Source: an uncultured Candidatus Saccharibacteria bacterium (GTDB lineage: Bacteria; Patescibacteriota; Saccharimonadia; Saccharimonadales; Saccharimonadaceae). Taken from it: a stretch of 64,000 nucleotides of DNA. Of this stretch, positions 17,181-21,500 are shown one piece after another (within the stretch, counting starts at the first letter, position 1; each line of letters starts with the position of its first letter). Made by a program: the position numbers and the translations under genes. Under the pieces are notes generated by a model. That model worked only from the letters and a program-made list of their open reading frames with translations, had not been told where the DNA came from and ran no database searches. The stretch is from contig CAMPBO010000002.1 of the NCBI GenBank assembly GCA_946638615.1, positions 5,746 to 69,745 of the forward strand, given 5' to 3'.

Positions 17181-17202
17181 TGGTGGACGATACAGGAGTT
17201 GA
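17181..17202 (-). repeat. Near-exact (20/22) duplicate of the tRNA-Val 3' end
   Basis: TGGTGGACGATACAGGAGTTGA vs TGGTGGGCGATACAGGAGTCGA at 17239-17260. Confidence 0.85.
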
Positions 17203-17238
17203 TTCGAAGAACGACTCCGCCGTTTGTTCCACTATAAA

Positions 17239-17315
17239 TGGTGGGCGATACAGGAGTCGAACCTGTGACCTCGTCTACGTCAAAGACGCGCTCTAGCCAA
17301 CTGAGCTAACCGCCC
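17239..17315 (-). tRNA. tRNA-Val(GAC)
   Basis: CGTCT-TTGACGT-AGACG anticodon arm, GGTTCGACTCC, CCA. Confidence 0.96.
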
Positions 17316-17320
17316 CTGTA

Positions 17321-17397
17321 TGGTGAGTCAGGTGGGACTTGAACCCACGACACCGGGCTTAAAAGGCCCGTGCTCTAACCAGCTGAGCTACTGACCC
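17321..17397 (-). tRNA. tRNA-Lys(TTT)
   Basis: CGGGC-CTTTTAA-GCCCG anticodon arm, GGTTCAAGTCC, CCA. Confidence 0.96.
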
Positions 17398-17689
17398 AAT
17401 TTTTAATGTTGGTTTTTGCAACCTGCGACTATTATACCACAAAAAATGAAAAATATACAGGTTTTTATTTTCTGCATAAAATACACTATAGCTATGAGGC
17501 AAATAAAGGACTATTAAACCACCAAGAAGATGATTTGCGTTCTATTGATAATAATGTGATTTTGTGTTATAATATATGTAGTTGAGTAGTGTGCTTAACT
17601 AAAAATGAGTACATTAAAATTTAGGAAAGAAGGCTATTTCTTTTTTTGTCTCGTTTTTGGGCTTAAAAATATTTTAGGAGGGTTATTTT

Positions 17690-18502
17690 ATGAAAAAAAT
17701 ACAGGAAGTCCCCAAAGGAGTAATAAAAAGTGCAGAAGAATTGGAAAGGCTTGACGATTTGGATTTGCCCCCCAAGACAAAAAATTTAATCGAGCGAAAG
17801 TTTGGCAAGGATCTTGAGAGGATTGTGTATGAGGGGAGAATGGCGACTTTTGACGGCTACGGGAATCATTTACTCATTATAGAAGATCTCGTAAAAGCCT
17901 TGGATGCGGCAGGGTTTATACGCCACGATTTAGATCCGAGGGTATTTTCGATTTATTGTCGTCTTTATGTGGCGGTTTATCGAAAAGGCGCCTCGGGTCG
18001 TGTCCATTATAGGAGAACTGGGTTATGCCCCATGGATGACCGGGGTGTTTTTAATTATCATCTCGGGAATAAACAATACGAGACTTTTCGTAATCTTGGT
18101 ATTGACGATCTTTCGGTGGTTTTAGAGCATTCTCTATACGAGAAAATGACTGAGGTCATCAAACTCCGGTTTGGGTTTGAAGGTGAAGCTTACAGCTTAA
18201 AAGCTACAGCTAAACGTCTCGATATTTCGTTTCATTACATCTACAACCTGGAAAAGAGGGCTTTGAATAAGCTTAAGTATGGTGGCCAATTATTAAAGAT
18301 TGCTGCATTTAAAGAATGTGACTACGGGTTGCCGGAGATCAATAGGCTTGGACTCAGTGCTCGAGCTTATGATCTCCTAGTGTCTTTAGGTGTTAGTAGC
18401 GTTGATGAGATTAAATCGTTGTCTGATGAGTCTCTGCTGGCAGTTAGGGGTCTTGGTCCCAAAACTCTGGCGGAAATTCGGGAGAAAAGTAGTAGCCTCT
18501 AA
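17690..18502 (+). CDS. Sigma-70 region 4-like HTH fused to RNA polymerase alpha-CTD-like domain
   Basis: EVIKLRFG..YSLKATAKRLDIS..NLEKRALNKLK (sigma4) and LGLSARAY..GVSSVDEI..LLAVRGLGPKTLAEIREK (alphaCTD). Confidence 0.75.
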   Translation: MKKIQEVPKGVIKSAEELERLDDLDLPPKTKNLIERKFGKDLERIVYEGRMATFDGYGNHLLIIEDLVKALDAAGFIRHDLDPRVFSIYCRLYVAVYRKGASGRVHYRRTGLCPMDDRGVFNYHLGNKQYETFRNLGIDDLSVVLEHSLYEKMTEVIKLRFGFEGEAYSLKATAKRLDISFHYIYNLEKRALNKLKYGGQLLKIAAFKECDYGLPEINRLGLSARAYDLLVSLGVSSVDEIKSLSDESLLAVRGLGPKTLAEIREKSSSL

Positions 18503-18505
18503 AAT

Positions 18506-18537
18506 AAAAGCCCTTGGTGACCAGCCAGGGGCTTTTT
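18506..18537 (+). terminator. Intrinsic terminator
   Basis: AAAAGCCCTTGG-TGACCAG-CCAGGGGCTTTTT. Confidence 0.7.
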
Positions 18538-18580
18538 ATGTACTTCTAAAAATACAGAATAACGCTTTCGGGATTTTACT

Positions 18581-18664
18581 ACTAAAAAATCGGCGAAAAT
18601 GCCGAGTTATATAAAGCCTGGTGGGGGGGCGAATTGGGCAGGTGTTAACACTATATAGAGAAGA
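18581..18664. repeat. Inter-cassette repeat copy R1 (tRNA-Phe terminator copy + TGGTGG + 17-bp core)
   Basis: ACTAAAAAATCGGCGAAAATGCCGAGTT identical to 21386-21413; core GGGGCGAATTGGGCAGG at 18626-18642. Confidence 0.9.
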
Positions 18665-18689
18665 TAATAGGGTCAAGCTACTCAAGTAT

Positions 18690-18741
18690 AAAAAGAAGCT
18701 CCTGCGGTAGGAGCATACTGCCCCGTGCAGGAACTTCATTA
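18690..18741 (-). ncRNA. Candidate small structured RNA downstream of CdiA-like nuclease
   Basis: 11-bp stem GAAGTTCCTGC/GCAGGAGCTTC, inner hairpin GGGGCA-GTA-TGCTCC, U5 tail; starts about 7 nt after a consensus promoter. Confidence 0.55.
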
Positions 18742-18747
18742 CCCATT

Positions 18748-18776
18748 ATTTTATCAAATTAGTGATTTGATGTCAA
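18748..18776 (-). promoter_or_regulatory. Sigma70 promoter embedded in nuclease gene 3' end
   Basis: TTGACA-17 bp-TAAAAT with extended -10 TG; no downstream ORF. Confidence 0.75.
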
Positions 18777-19146
18777 TGATTTGGCCGCGTTTCGTAATGA
18801 AGATAAGCCCACCGATTTGTTTTTGCTCTCTAGCTTTTTTAATTAAAAATCGTCGAAGATTATCATCTCGCATGTTTTTTATTCTAGATGAATCAAAGAT
18901 GATATTTCTAGATTGTTTTAGCCCACGTTTGATATTACGCTCTAATTTATCTGGTTTGTTAGTGAATGGAGATTTCATTTCATACCCAATACCGTCTAGT
19001 AAAATATCGGCGGTACTTATATTTGATTCTGGTAAGAATTCGATATTGTGGCCAGCCATTGCTAGAATATTAGCAATACGAAGCTCATGTGGCCATGGTT
19101 TGCGACCACCTGGGATTATGATTCTACCTCGCTTTATATTGTCCAT
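18754..19146 (-). CDS. CdiA C-terminal-like PD-(D/E)xK nuclease (putative tRNase)
   Basis: HE..IANILA..G..IEFLP..TADILLDG..YEMKSP..KQSRNIIFD pattern of stand-alone CdiA_C domains. Confidence 0.75.
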   Translation of the reverse strand: MDNIKRGRIIIPGGRKPWPHELRIANILAMAGHNIEFLPESNISTADILLDGIGYEMKSPFTNKPDKLERNIKRGLKQSRNIIFDSSRIKNMRDDNLRRFLIKKAREQKQIGGLIFITKRGQIIDIKSLI

Positions 19147-19192
19147 TCCCTATATTTTATCATAGAGGTCACCTCTTATCAATTCTAATATT

Positions 19193-19231
19193 GGGGCGAA
19201 TTGGGCAGGCATTAACACTGTATAGAGAAGA
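19193..19231. repeat. Inter-cassette repeat copy R2 (core only)
   Basis: GGGGCGAATTGGGCAGG-CA-TTAACACTGTATAGAGAAGA matches R1. Confidence 0.88.
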
Positions 19232-19287
19232 GATAAAAGCAAGAGCGTCTCGTGCTATAATAGATATATAAAATAGGAGGAATAAGG

Positions 19288-19929
19288 TTGAAAAACATAG
19301 TGGATGAAACTTTGGAGTATGTGAAAGAGTTTTTTAAGAATGATTTCAGTGGGCATGATTATTATCATACTTTAAGGGTGTATAATTTATCGAAACATAT
19401 TGCGAGATTTGAAGAGTGTAATGCACAATTAGTTTATTTGAGCGCATTATTGCATGATGTGGATGATTATAAGTTAGTAGGACGTGAAGAGGAGTCATTC
19501 CATAACGCAAAGTCTTTCCTAGAACGTCATGGTGTTTCTGATGAAGAAATAGAACAAGTTTGTCATATCATTTCTCAGGTGTCGTTCAAGGGAGAAGATA
19601 CCATCACTCCAGATACGATAGAAGGAAAAATTGTACAAGATGCAGACAGGCTGGATGCGATTGGGGCAATTGGAATAGGTAGAACATTTGCTTATGGCGG
19701 GAATCATAATGTGCCAATGCATATTCCTGATATGGAGTACAAAGAGAATATGTCTGCCGACGAGTATTATAAACATACAGGTACGACAATAAATCATTTT
19801 TATGAAAAACTCTTGAAACTTAAAGATTTGATGAATACGGAAATTGCTAGAAACATGGCGGAGCATAGACATAGGTTCATGAAAGAATTTTTGAAAGAGT
19901 TTTATGACGAATGGGATGGGGTAGCATAG
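19288..19929 (+). CDS. HD-domain metal-dependent phosphohydrolase (YedJ/YpgQ-like)
   Basis: GHDYYHTLRV, ALLHDVDD, VQDADRLDAIGAIGIGRTF, HFYEKLLKL. Confidence 0.92.
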   Translation: MKNIVDETLEYVKEFFKNDFSGHDYYHTLRVYNLSKHIARFEECNAQLVYLSALLHDVDDYKLVGREEESFHNAKSFLERHGVSDEEIEQVCHIISQVSFKGEDTITPDTIEGKIVQDADRLDAIGAIGIGRTFAYGGNHNVPMHIPDMEYKENMSADEYYKHTGTTINHFYEKLLKLKDLMNTEIARNMAEHRHRFMKEFLKEFYDEWDGVA

Positions 19930-19949
19930 ATTCTAGGATATTAACAGGC

Positions 19950-20028
19950 AAAAAAATCGGCCAAAATGCCGAGTTTCTTATAGTCTGGTGGGGGCGAATT
20001 GGGCAGGTGTCAACATTTTATAGAGGAT
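19950..20028. repeat. Inter-cassette repeat copy R3
   Basis: AAAAAAATCGGCCAAAATGCCGAGTTTCTTATA..TGGTG-GGGGCGAATTGGGCAGG-TGTCAACATTTTATAGAG. Confidence 0.9.
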
Positions 20029-20198
20029 ACGTTAAATCAAGGTTACTGAATTATTGTGAAAAAGAAGCGTTCCCGTCCCAACGGATGCTTCACTTACCTG
20101 CGTGAGCTTTAACAAGAACGGGAAATATGTTATAATTACAGGGGAACATGGGAAAATCATCACTGGAACCTTAACTTATAGTTCAGGAGGTAGATAGT

Positions 20199-21320
20199 AT
20201 GAAAACGGTACACAAAATCGTTCTAACCGGAGGTCCGTGTGCCGGCAAGACTACGGCGCTGAGCTGGATCTCGAACTACTTCGGCAAAGTCGGATGGCGC
20301 ACGTTGGTCGTCAACGAAGCCGCCACGGAGCTGATTACGTCAGGGATTTATCCCACGGACTTCGACGATCCATTATTCTTCCAGACGTTGTTGCTCCAAA
20401 CGCAGATGGCAAAAGAGAAAAATTGCGTTGACGCCGCCTACGAAATGAAAGACGCCGATAAGGTCCTCGTAGTCTGCGATCGCGGGATGCGCGATAACAA
20501 GGCCTACATGACCGACGAAAACTTTCACGAATGCCTTCGCAGGATCGGACTTCCGGCCGTGCAGGCCGTCGATAGCTACGATGCAGTTTTCCATCTCGTT
20601 ACCGCCGCGGACGGAGCCGAGGAGTTTTACACCCTCGCCAATAATACCGCCCGGAGCGAGGGGCTGGAAGAGGCTCGTGCCCTCGACCGCAAGACGCAAA
20701 ATGCATGGGTTGGACATCCCCACCTGCGCATTATCAAGAACGAGGGGAGCTTCGAGGATAAACTAAAGAAACTCCTCGCCGAGATTTCCATCGTGTTGGG
20801 CGAACCTGAGCCGTTCGAAATTGAGCGGAAATACCTAATCGAATATCCCGATTTGGAGCTTCTGCGTGCGATGCCGAACTGCCAAGAAGTCGAAATCCTT
20901 CAGACCTACCTGCGCGGCGGCGATGAGAACGACGAAATTCGCGTGCGCCAGAGAGGCGTGGACGGTAATTACACCTTTACTAAGACGACGAAGCGTTGGA
21001 CTCCCGATCCGGCAAAACGGGTTGAAATCGAAAAGCGTATTTCGCGGGATGAGTATGTCAAAGCCCTGATGGATGCCTACCCGGGCGCCAACTCAATTCG
21101 CAAAACCCGCTTCTGCGTAATGCAACGCGAGACTGGCCAATACCTCGAAATCGACGTCTACCCGACCTCGGATAAGTATGCCATTCTTGAGGTAGAGTTC
21201 GGTTCAACCGACGACAAGCTGGTTGTCCCCGATTTCATCAAGGTCATCAAAGAAGTGACCGGTGACAAGGCGTATTATAACAGCACTATCGCCTTTAATG
21301 GTAACCGCTTGCCTGAATAA
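20199..21320 (+). CDS. P-loop (AAA_28/NadR-type kinase-like) + CYTH domain protein
   Basis: VLTGGPCAGKTT, CDRG, EIERKYL (CYTH ExExK), EIDVY, ILEVE; visibly GC-richer than flanks. Confidence 0.88.
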   Translation: MKTVHKIVLTGGPCAGKTTALSWISNYFGKVGWRTLVVNEAATELITSGIYPTDFDDPLFFQTLLLQTQMAKEKNCVDAAYEMKDADKVLVVCDRGMRDNKAYMTDENFHECLRRIGLPAVQAVDSYDAVFHLVTAADGAEEFYTLANNTARSEGLEEARALDRKTQNAWVGHPHLRIIKNEGSFEDKLKKLLAEISIVLGEPEPFEIERKYLIEYPDLELLRAMPNCQEVEILQTYLRGGDENDEIRVRQRGVDGNYTFTKTTKRWTPDPAKRVEIEKRISRDEYVKALMDAYPGANSIRKTRFCVMQRETGQYLEIDVYPTSDKYAILEVEFGSTDDKLVVPDFIKVIKEVTGDKAYYNSTIAFNGNRLPE

Positions 21321-21332
21321 CTGTAATCCATG

Positions 21333-21361
21333 AAAAACTCGCTCGAAAGAGCGGGTTTTTT
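21333..21361 (+). terminator. Intrinsic terminator
   Basis: AAAAACTCGCTC-GAAA-GAGCGGGTTTTTT. Confidence 0.8.
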
Positions 21362-21385
21362 AATTCTATCTAACAGAAATCTACC

Positions 21386-21420
21386 ACTAAAAAATCGGCG
21401 AAAATGCCGAGTTTCTTATA
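21386..21420 (-). terminator. tRNA-Phe terminator (repeat copy R4)
   Basis: Minus strand TCGGC-ATTTTC-GCCGA-TTTTTT just after the tRNA CCA; copies at 18581 and 19950. Confidence 0.8.
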
Positions 21421-21424
21421 ACCA

Positions 21425-21500
21425 TGGTGGTTCCGGCTGGACTTGAACCAGCGACACAAGGCTCTTCAGGCCTCTGCTCTACCAACTGAGCTACAGAACC
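21425..21500 (-). tRNA. tRNA-Phe(GAA)
   Basis: GAGGC-CTGAAGA-GCCTT anticodon arm, GGTTCAAGTCC, CCA. Confidence 0.96.

Follow-up and report, generated by a model that had tools for sequence, protein, structure and literature searches.

Four one-gene inserts behind tRNA-Phe in a gut Saccharibacteria genome, with joints that read as remnants of a large serine recombinase gene

Results and discussion

A stacked insert within a tRNA gene cluster

The window analysed here is a stretch of 64,000 nucleotides from an uncultured gut Saccharibacteria genome (assembly completeness 71%), in which an insert of 4 kb interrupts a Phe-Lys-Val cluster of tRNA genes (Table 1). The same cluster site is empty in 13 of 20 relatives, whose loci were picked via hisS. 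On its sequence, the insert is a stack of four one-gene inserts behind tRNA-Phe, with remnants of a large serine recombinase (LSR) gene at the joints. It starts at ~17410, where a decayed core presumably marks its far end, and a candidate fourth tail arm at ~17490 was rejected with a PWM score at genome-background level.

Table 1. Features of the tRNA-Phe locus, in coordinates of the window.
Feature	Position	Strand	Remarks
tRNA-Lys(ttt) and tRNA-Val(gac)	17239..17397	-	Separated from tRNA-Phe by the insert
Decayed distal core TGGTTT	17410..17415	+	As far from tRNA-Lys as the intact core is in the empty G002 site
Cassette 4 cargo	17690..18502	+	Sigma70 region 4 and RNA polymerase alpha-CTD-like protein; promoter-like site 17545-17573; decayed tail arm
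Junction R1	18572..18668	+	Truncated body arm with hairpin 18572-18618, core 18619-18624, tail arm 18625-18668
Cassette 3 cargo	18754..19146	-	CdiA_C-like protein, 130 aa (Pfam); promoter-like site 19182-19154
R2	19193..19240	+	Tail arm only, core and body arm missing; joined to the beginning of the CdiA_C-like unit
Cassette 2 cargo	19288..19929	+	HD phosphohydrolase (Pfam)
Junction R3, attP-like	19935..20035	+	Body arm 19935-19985, core TGGTGG 19986-19991, tail arm 19992-20035
Cassette 1 cargo	20199..21320	+	Pfam AAA_28 P-loop and CYTH-like domain, the latter detected on the L014 homologue; GC 0.53 (genome 0.40); promoter-like site 20109-20136
Body-side att arm of cassette 1	21371..21424	+	LSR last-codon remnant before the core; hairpin and T-run
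tRNA-Phe(gaa)	21425..21500	-	ARAGORN; shared recombination core at its CCACCA end (TGGTGG on +, 21425-21430)

Sequence searches recovered the repeat structure that the initial annotation had described, with 17-mer copies at 18626, 19193 and 19991, each followed by T(T/C)AACA-N3-TATAGAG, and with TGGTGG upstream of R1 (two additional G standing between it and the arm) and of R3; R2 retains only the final G. The 28-bp identity claimed between the runs at 18581 and 21386 is exact, and a third copy of the hairpin run at 19951 is 86% similar over 44 nt. Similar hairpins also lie 3' of tRNA-Met (C5) and tRNA-Ile (C13) in the same genome. The cassette 1 cargo is GC-rich, as had been noted, with values of 0.36 in the CdiA_C-like and HD genes and 0.42 in the sigma-r4 gene. 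With up to 3 mismatches allowed, the 541-kb assembly contains no other copy of the 17-mer, and such confinement of all three copies to the array, together with the association with tRNA ends in relatives, is not the pattern of a generic REP or MITE.

The repeats as split ends of a recombinase gene

Reading frames at other loci indicate that the window repeats are the 3' end of an LSR gene, split by its own attachment site. LSR frames run uninterrupted through TGGTGG and the 17-mer at L154/L023 and L226, and the R3 tail arm codes in frame for the LSR tail W-W-G-R-I. At 24 of the 30 top LSR loci the recombinase 3' end overlaps a tRNA 3' end on the opposite strand, and the far-arm core is identical to the tRNA-end core in 69 of 77 arrays. 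Across 152 copies, arm positions 1-15 and 19-30 are mostly 97-100% conserved while the flanks diverge; a codon-level check of whether the tail arm is still selected as protein gave a weak result (20 synonymous vs 40 non-synonymous variants, 24% expected).

Because the LSR frame runs through the motif, we dropped its readings as Xer/dif or attC sites, along with resemblances to Tn916-type arm sites and to a 5-bp transposon target duplication. TTAACA was also rejected as a promoter element, since the arms have no -10 box at proper spacing. An integron-like system, with a tyrosine recombinase (IntI or host Xer) acting on folded single-stranded sites, is largely refuted and in our view highly improbable: one-gene cassettes in an array, TTAAC within the arm, and a 312-aa Xer-like protein on another contig, the sole tyrosine recombinase found in this genome, would all suit it, but the motif is LSR coding sequence, the tail arm has no excess of structure over shuffled sequences (z -0.09 and -1.6), and the cassettes carry their own promoters and lie in both orientations.

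The hairpin occurs at 54 of 77 tRNA-side junctions, beside Phe, Met, Val, Ile and Ala tRNAs alike. Because it adjoins these five tRNA types and is absent from empty tRNA-Phe sites, it is not the copied tRNA-Phe end and terminator that the initial annotation had proposed; it is cassette-borne. In the arm next to tRNA-Phe, the hairpin and T-run read as a predicted intrinsic terminator of the tRNA transcript.

Distribution across the genus and its tRNA genes

A degenerate form of the motif was found in 140 of 369 genus genomes, and since the reversed control gave one match, its occurrence is not due to chance (six loci, L018, L019, L020, L074, L102 and L114, were removed as chance matches before all counts). 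The motif usually lies ≤3.5 kb from a tRNA gene ending in CCACCA (Phe, Met, Val, Ile, Ala); an opposite-strand tRNA lay within 3.5 kb in 67 of the 73 arrays with room for one, against 3 of 116 in the same-strand control. The targets are tRNA CCA ends, with a core of 5-6 bp. Arrays hold 1 to 7 cassettes, and relatives differ in whether their tRNA-Phe site is filled or empty. Neither motif matches nor LSR relatives were found in the viral collection.

Full-size elements and a candidate enzyme

Full elements with an intact LSR measure 9.7-14.8 kb (about 10-15 kb), with the LSR adjoining the tRNA, the tail arm at the opposite end and a core that matches the target tRNA: TGGCT at tRNA-Gln (L189, L190) and TGGTG at tRNA-Val (L184, where the arm score is weak). 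The LSR domain set (Pfam PF00239, PF07508 and PF13408; Resolvase, Recombinase and zinc-ribbon) was identified in loci of relatives (L183, L184, L189), not within the window. Besides the LSR these elements encode an SSB-like protein, a 530-aa P-loop protein and, in some, a second small serine-recombinase-like ORF; none of the 30 proteins scanned matched ParB or Mom. The tRNAs with ends overlapped by an intact LSR are those for Gln, Val, Ile, Leu, Pro, Trp, Ser, Arg and Gly. In a quick tree of 46 rows the LSR clades sort by the core that their target tRNAs carry. Copies of one LSR at tRNA-Val and at tRNA-Ile, from two species, show 100% identity over aa 337-557.

Searches of the window's own genome, at its present completeness, turned up no LSR, and by our own reading of the searches close matches (E < 1e-60) are confined to 9 of the 140 genomes with the motif. 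Since no intact LSR was seen immediately upstream of a hairpin-type body arm, the type present in the window, we infer the helper of these cassettes from homology.

Serine integrases place their zinc-domain motif 5 bp nearer the centre in attB than in attP (PMC3783163), and aligning the tRNA T-arm as attB with attP gave a best offset of 5 bp by a narrow margin (5.7 vs 5.1 of 11).

Cassette sharing and turnover

The recombinase-free cassettes have a median size of 1 kb and very diverse cargo, retaining just both arms around about one self-promoted gene. In thirteen pairs, cassettes beside different types of tRNA match over their full length, with ≥90% identity in 9 pairs, and a 705-bp cassette with identical ends sits at Met, Phe and Val tRNAs of four species at 92-95% identity. 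The HD cassette of the window (19193-19946) is 95% identical to cassettes of two other species, the match ending at the arms, and hisS is only 64-72% identical between these species. Homologues of the cassette 3 unit occur in other species at 68-85% identity, and a contig from run X5, 98% identical, tracks cassette 1 up to R3 and then continues into different sequence. These comparisons uphold the initial picture of one-gene cassettes, recombinase-free and acquired separately, that are stacked at a tRNA and turn over their cargo at the repeats. The proposed skew of that cargo towards defence was not borne out, as nuclease and defence types made up 8 of 56 Pfam-named representatives (113 scanned) and PADLOC gave no convincing match for the four window genes.

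Such cassettes could instead be fossil islands, full LSR elements decayed in place by internal deletion that are immobile alone or only co-excised with an adjacent full element, and decay is indeed visible: LSR pseudogene fragments adjoin arms (L025, L229, L230, L232), the LSR of L023 is 5'-deleted, LSR remnants of 30-130 codons are many, the distal arm in the window is decayed, and at L023 and L189 a mini and a larger element follow one another in tandem. We consider this unlikely, because the 705-bp cassette would then require repeated identical deletions, the arms are conserved despite diverging flanks, and the full elements examined carry other cargo than the minis. In run X2, one contig lacks 18572-19248, and with its ends outside the core this loss is decay, not site-specific excision. 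Among the contigs of sequencing runs no excised circle or recombination event was observed; arm-to-arm joints considered as circles had sides of 26-44 letters and were set aside as probably derived from other cassettes, and stretches that the runs left uncovered carry no weight as evidence.

R2 has no core and is therefore not a normal att junction; this type was found in 9 arms examined, and the CdiA_C-like unit, with its core-less tail arm, is followed by differing cargo between genomes. Saccharibacteria are naturally competent. These points, and the absence of a close LSR from most motif-bearing genomes, would agree with arms that serve as homology anchors, where resident cassettes swap cargo with taken-up DNA through homologous recombination and an LSR only founded the sites. 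The arms, however, are merely 45-70 bp and 75-95% alike, swapping cannot fill an empty site although both states occur at tRNA-Phe among relatives, and array length varies, so that we rate this about as unlikely as decay in place.

A model of cassette movement

We consider it probable that recombinase-free mini-elements, descended from tRNA-CCA LSR islands, make up the locus as a tandem stack and are likely moved by the LSR of a full-size element, so that the cassettes would be mobilised in trans. With the att site inside the LSR 3' end, an integrated element has the gene body running into the antisense strand of the tRNA and the tail at its far end. A circle carrying body arm, TGGTGG and tail arm would recombine with any tRNA ending in CCACCA, the universal T-arm acting as the attB zinc-domain motif, and new units would enter beside the tRNA and displace older ones outward. 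The body-arm hairpin would end transcription of the tRNA. Homologous recombination within the tail arm probably exchanges some cargo as well, as at R2, and passage between cells may, as a guess, involve small circles taken up from outside or excision together with a helper element. Canonical serine integrases do not act on attP paired with a hybrid site and need a directionality factor for excision (PMC3783163), and we identified no such factor here. The initial interpretation stands as to the tRNA-anchored stack and likely service in trans, and falls as to the terminator copy, integron likeness, defence skew and lack of precedent.

More tentatively, as a reading that we find plausible without leaning towards it, the genus Nanosyncoccus may share an integron-like pool for gene capture that spans the genus and relies on a serine recombinase, with one LSR clade and a specialised lineage of 1-kb non-autonomous cassettes. 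That clade would read the universal T-arm and CCA end as attB, so any CCACCA-ending tRNA would be usable, and cassettes with a built-in tRNA-protecting terminator would circulate between species and acquire new single genes. If true, this would be a naturally multi-target, tRNA-safe integrase and the principal route of accessory-gene flow in these reduced genomes.

To our knowledge, few mobile elements have been described in Patescibacteria, and miniature LSR derivatives occur in at least 38% of the genomes of this genus. They would escape island finders that require an integrase gene and a long tRNA fragment. In 2015 the Islander paper (PMC4383910) held that no serine recombinase was known to use tRNA genes as targets; the later tycheposon preprint (bioRxiv 10.1101/2020.12.28.424599) lists a small LSR minority, 27 of 937 integrases in Prochlorococcus. 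Arms, target rule and candidate enzyme are defined sufficiently for a direct plasmid assay, and a recombinase inserting harmlessly at conserved tRNA ends could serve as a genetic tool for Saccharibacteria, which are hard to manipulate.

Comparison with known systems

Integrons are arrays of exchangeable one-gene cassettes that gain new units at one end; unlike them, the Saccharibacteria arrays have no IntI, attI or folded attC, and their self-promoted cassettes bear two double-stranded arms. The architecture is not undescribed, as had been supposed, but matches the Dehalococcoides ssrA islands and the staphylococcal cassette chromosomes (SCC), the tRNA-CCA targets and one-gene size being new. 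In McMurdie et al. 2011 (PMC3146451), the ssrA islands are tandem units at the 3' end of a stable-RNA gene, and the gene for DsiB, a 540-aa CcrB-like LSR, overlaps the att site with its 3' end and reads into the target RNA gene or a neighbouring island; 16 of 31 islands have an integration module and the rest have none. As described there, those islands are multi-gene and use only tmRNA, with crossing in the T-loop and a 20-bp repeat, whereas the Saccharibacteria units are mostly ~1 kb with one gene and a 6-bp CCACCA core at several tRNA types, and their full elements have not the six-gene dsiB-dsiA-recF-parB-mom module. In SCC too, with its composite and ccr-less islands (PMC13739063), an LSR drives the tandem build-up of units behind the 3' end of a single gene, and the internal att sites are short; its target is rlmH and its units are far larger. 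The best NCBIfam match of our LSR is CcrB at 94 bits, against a cut-off of 900, and with its tRNA targets this sets it apart from SCC. Tycheposons, as described in the preprint, share tRNA-anchored cargo elements, an integration and replication module and accreting islands, but mostly use tyrosine recombinases, att sites of ~40-nt tRNA fragments and one tRNA per integrase. Main article texts searched gave no account of such a system in Saccharibacteria, and island catalogues may already list such elements. The direct repeat at both ends and the empty site in relatives are those of an LSR integrative element.

Arm score declines with distance from the tRNA (medians 69, 61 and 56); within arrays the age gradient was not significant (22 of 39, p 0.09).

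Repeats and cargo of the window array

The window sequence yielded every feature reported in the initial annotation: three 17-mers, hairpins upstream of two of them, the 28 identical bp and the contrast in GC content, and the 17-mer is restricted to this array rather than scattered genome-wide (search of the 541-kb, 71%-complete assembly). Pfam assigned the four cargo genes to the families listed in the table. Three of the four have a near-consensus sigma70-type promoter site, and a TG-TATAAT element was spotted by eye at the HD gene. The sigma70-r4 plus alpha-CTD protein is rare: among proteins of near-equal length it has just 3 homologues, of which two show 88-93% identity.

Coordinates and sizes of features in the window array and at related loci
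Feature	Position	Size	Remark
tRNA-Val 3'-end copy (D18)	17181-17238	22 nt	58 bp past gene, short insert between
Decayed core	17410		After 11-nt spacer
TG-TATAAT-like element	17425-17445, minus strand		Upstream of tRNA-Lys
Cassette 4 cargo	17690-18502		sigma70-r4 + alpha-CTD protein
17-mer at junction R1	18626
Cassette 3 cargo	18754-19146		CdiA_C-like protein
17-mer at junction R2	19193		Core-less
Cassette 2 cargo	19288-19929		HD hydrolase
17-mer at junction R3	19991
Cassette 1 cargo	20199-21320		AAA_28 protein
Hairpin-type body arm	G000 C5:5796		After tRNA-Met(cat)
Hairpin-type body arm	G000 C13:2283		After tRNA-Ile(gat)
Commonest cargo family	L005:5986-6888		28 relatives
Nucleotidyltransferase cassette	L069:4203-4976		AadA C-terminal domain
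Full element	L189	9.7 kb	Far arm, core matching its tRNA
Full element	L190	14.8 kb	Far arm, core matching its tRNA
Full element	L184	13 kb	Far arm, core matching its tRNA
Element with 5'-deleted LSR	L023:5482-13211	7.6 kb
Short serine-recombinase-like ORF	L183:7785-8708		Upstream of LSR

The repeat derives from the end of a recombinase gene

One inter-motif interval holds a fragment of a large serine recombinase (LSR), relatives of which were then traced in the genus. At locus L154 the LSR frame continues through TGGTGG (the core, read as W-W) and the entire motif. Read-through of the motif also occurs in a contig from a metagenome that shares 94% identity with another LSR. At 24 of 30 loci this is the point where the LSR enters a tRNA gene on its antisense strand. 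Because LSR frames read through the motif, the att site is located inside the end of the recombinase gene. The left part of each junction (the body arm) is homologous, in register, to the LSR codons preceding the core, and in most recombinase-free units (minis) its last 49 nt have turned into a hairpin and T-run. This hairpin had been read as a copy of the tRNA-Phe terminator, an interpretation we reject, since the hairpin-type arm adjoins Phe (24/29), Met (13/20), Val and Ile tRNAs and was not found at the empty tRNA-Phe sites of relatives; the body arm thus belongs to the cassette. Two further hairpin-type arms lie elsewhere in the genome containing the window (G000). Neither a tail arm nor cargo was found in their vicinity, and they are likely scars of lost cassettes that were retained as terminators.

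Empty and filled tRNA-Phe sites

Among 20 comparison loci chosen by hisS similarity, tRNA-Phe is directly followed by tRNA-Lys/Val in 13 and its site is filled by other cassettes in 5 (1 unclear, 1 uninformative). Judged from sequence comparison, the entire 17410-21424 stretch, sigma gene included, is an insertion, since the Phe-Lys spacer is 11 nt in the closest relative (G002) and the window likewise has 11 nt, then the decayed core. From the first tail-arm base through to the body arm, the HD cassette shares 95% identity with units at L046 and L008, while hisS is 64-72% identical. Contigs from 4 of 17 listed runs were also compared with the array: one (X5) matches cassette 1 up to R3 and has other sequence beyond it, and another (X2) lacks 18572-19248, with deletion ends that disregard the cores.

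Short duplications resembling the tRNA-Val copy also follow tRNA ends in L205, L206, L027 and L028, and possibly represent a separate tiny tRNA-trailer element. The TG-TATAAT-like element upstream of tRNA-Lys, spotted by eye, may have given the Lys and Val tRNAs severed from tRNA-Phe a new promoter.

Distribution of motif and cargo

A degenerate 24-nt pattern matched in 140 of 369 genus genomes, with 1 match for the reversed control. Scanning a genome collection for the motif gave 111 loci; of the 80 that were listed, 76 carry the title Saccharibacteria or Ca. Nanosyncoccus and 1 that of an uncultured bacterium, and 3 are unrelated chance matches. After removal of six chance loci, an opposite-strand tRNA, mainly Phe, Met, Val or Ile, lay within 3.5 kb in 67 of the 73 arrays with enough downstream DNA (same-strand control 3/116), which establishes the target rule.

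The 210 ORFs between motifs formed 133 clusters, some of which are flanking genes or spurious frames. Of 147 bounded intervals, 112 contain a single ORF. Pfam matched 56 of 113 scanned cargo representatives, chiefly NUDIX, GNAT, methyltransferase, hydrolase and other accessory types of a similar, housekeeping-like kind, with nuclease or defence types accounting for 8 of the 56. The commonest cargo is a divergent Pfam-less family (29 ORFs, 170-300 aa) with a hydrophobic N-terminal stretch, present at Phe, Met, Val, Ile and Ala tRNAs; these are possibly variable surface proteins. The nucleotidyltransferase in the L069 cassette resembles aminoglycoside adenylyltransferases.

Whole recombinase-free units are common to different species and different tRNAs. 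A set of 141 distinct cassettes with a median length of 1002 bp contains 13 pairs that are homologous over nearly their full length yet sit at different types of tRNA; one of these, a 705-bp NUDIX cassette, occurs at Met, Phe and Val tRNAs with 92-95% identity. Overall, arms farther from the tRNA are of lower quality (rho -0.38, with related genomes not independent), with no significant fall inside single arrays.

Proposed mechanism

We propose that cassettes would form circles, that a recombinase would act in trans on minis, and that new units would be added on the tRNA-proximal side, with the tRNA T-arm serving as a putative attB motif and the body-arm hairpin as a predicted transcription terminator. 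When the T-arm was tested against the serine integrase 5-bp rule for motif offset (PMC3783163), an offset of 5 was best, by a narrow margin. Counting against this mechanism, no LSR was found in the 71%-complete G000 assembly, just 9 of the 140 genomes with the motif have a close LSR (by our reading of the motif scan alongside the LSR search), no intact LSR was seen on a hairpin-type arm in the loci examined, and no circle was seen in the contigs examined. R2 also counts against it, as this core-less junction recurs with the CdiA_C-like unit ahead of different cargo, an arrangement that, as far as sequence can tell, points to homologous swaps inside the tail arm at such junctions.

Full elements and comparison with known systems

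Full elements encode an intact Resolvase-Recombinase-zinc-ribbon LSR, restriction-type cargo and a P-loop protein of 530 aa, for which the closest named Atlas clusters are helicase or primase types (a lead only). One also has an SSB-like protein, and the full-element proteins scanned included none for capsids or conjugation. In a quick, unfinished tree of 46 rows, LSRs group by target core, and two species have an identical LSR stretch, located at tRNA-Val and tRNA-Ile. More distant LSR clades (L234-L247, L196-L201) overlap Arg, Leu, Gly, Ser and Tyr tRNA ends, so that across the genus a separate LSR family exists for many types of tRNA.

According to the Islander paper, serine recombinases were not known at tRNAs (PMC4383910), and the tycheposon preprint gives LSRs as a small share of integrases (bioRxiv 10.1101/2020.12.28.424599). 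Dehalococcoides ssrA islands (PMC3146451) share their design with the Saccharibacteria elements, down to a dsiB gene that overlaps attL and the occurrence of islands lacking the module, and SCC composites provide a second precedent for the cassette stack (PMC13739063). The best NCBIfam match of the LSR is CcrB, at a score far below cut-off. The Saccharibacteria elements function like ssrA islands and SCC, yet belong to neither, because target and module differ. We found no description of such elements in Saccharibacteria in the full texts searched, a set with few subscription papers and no supplements.

In L183, L223 and L225, short ORFs resembling serine recombinases lie upstream of the LSR and are reminiscent of DsiA or CcrA. 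The L023 element carries a BsoBI-like restriction-modification pair and an SMODS/AGS_C nucleotidyltransferase.
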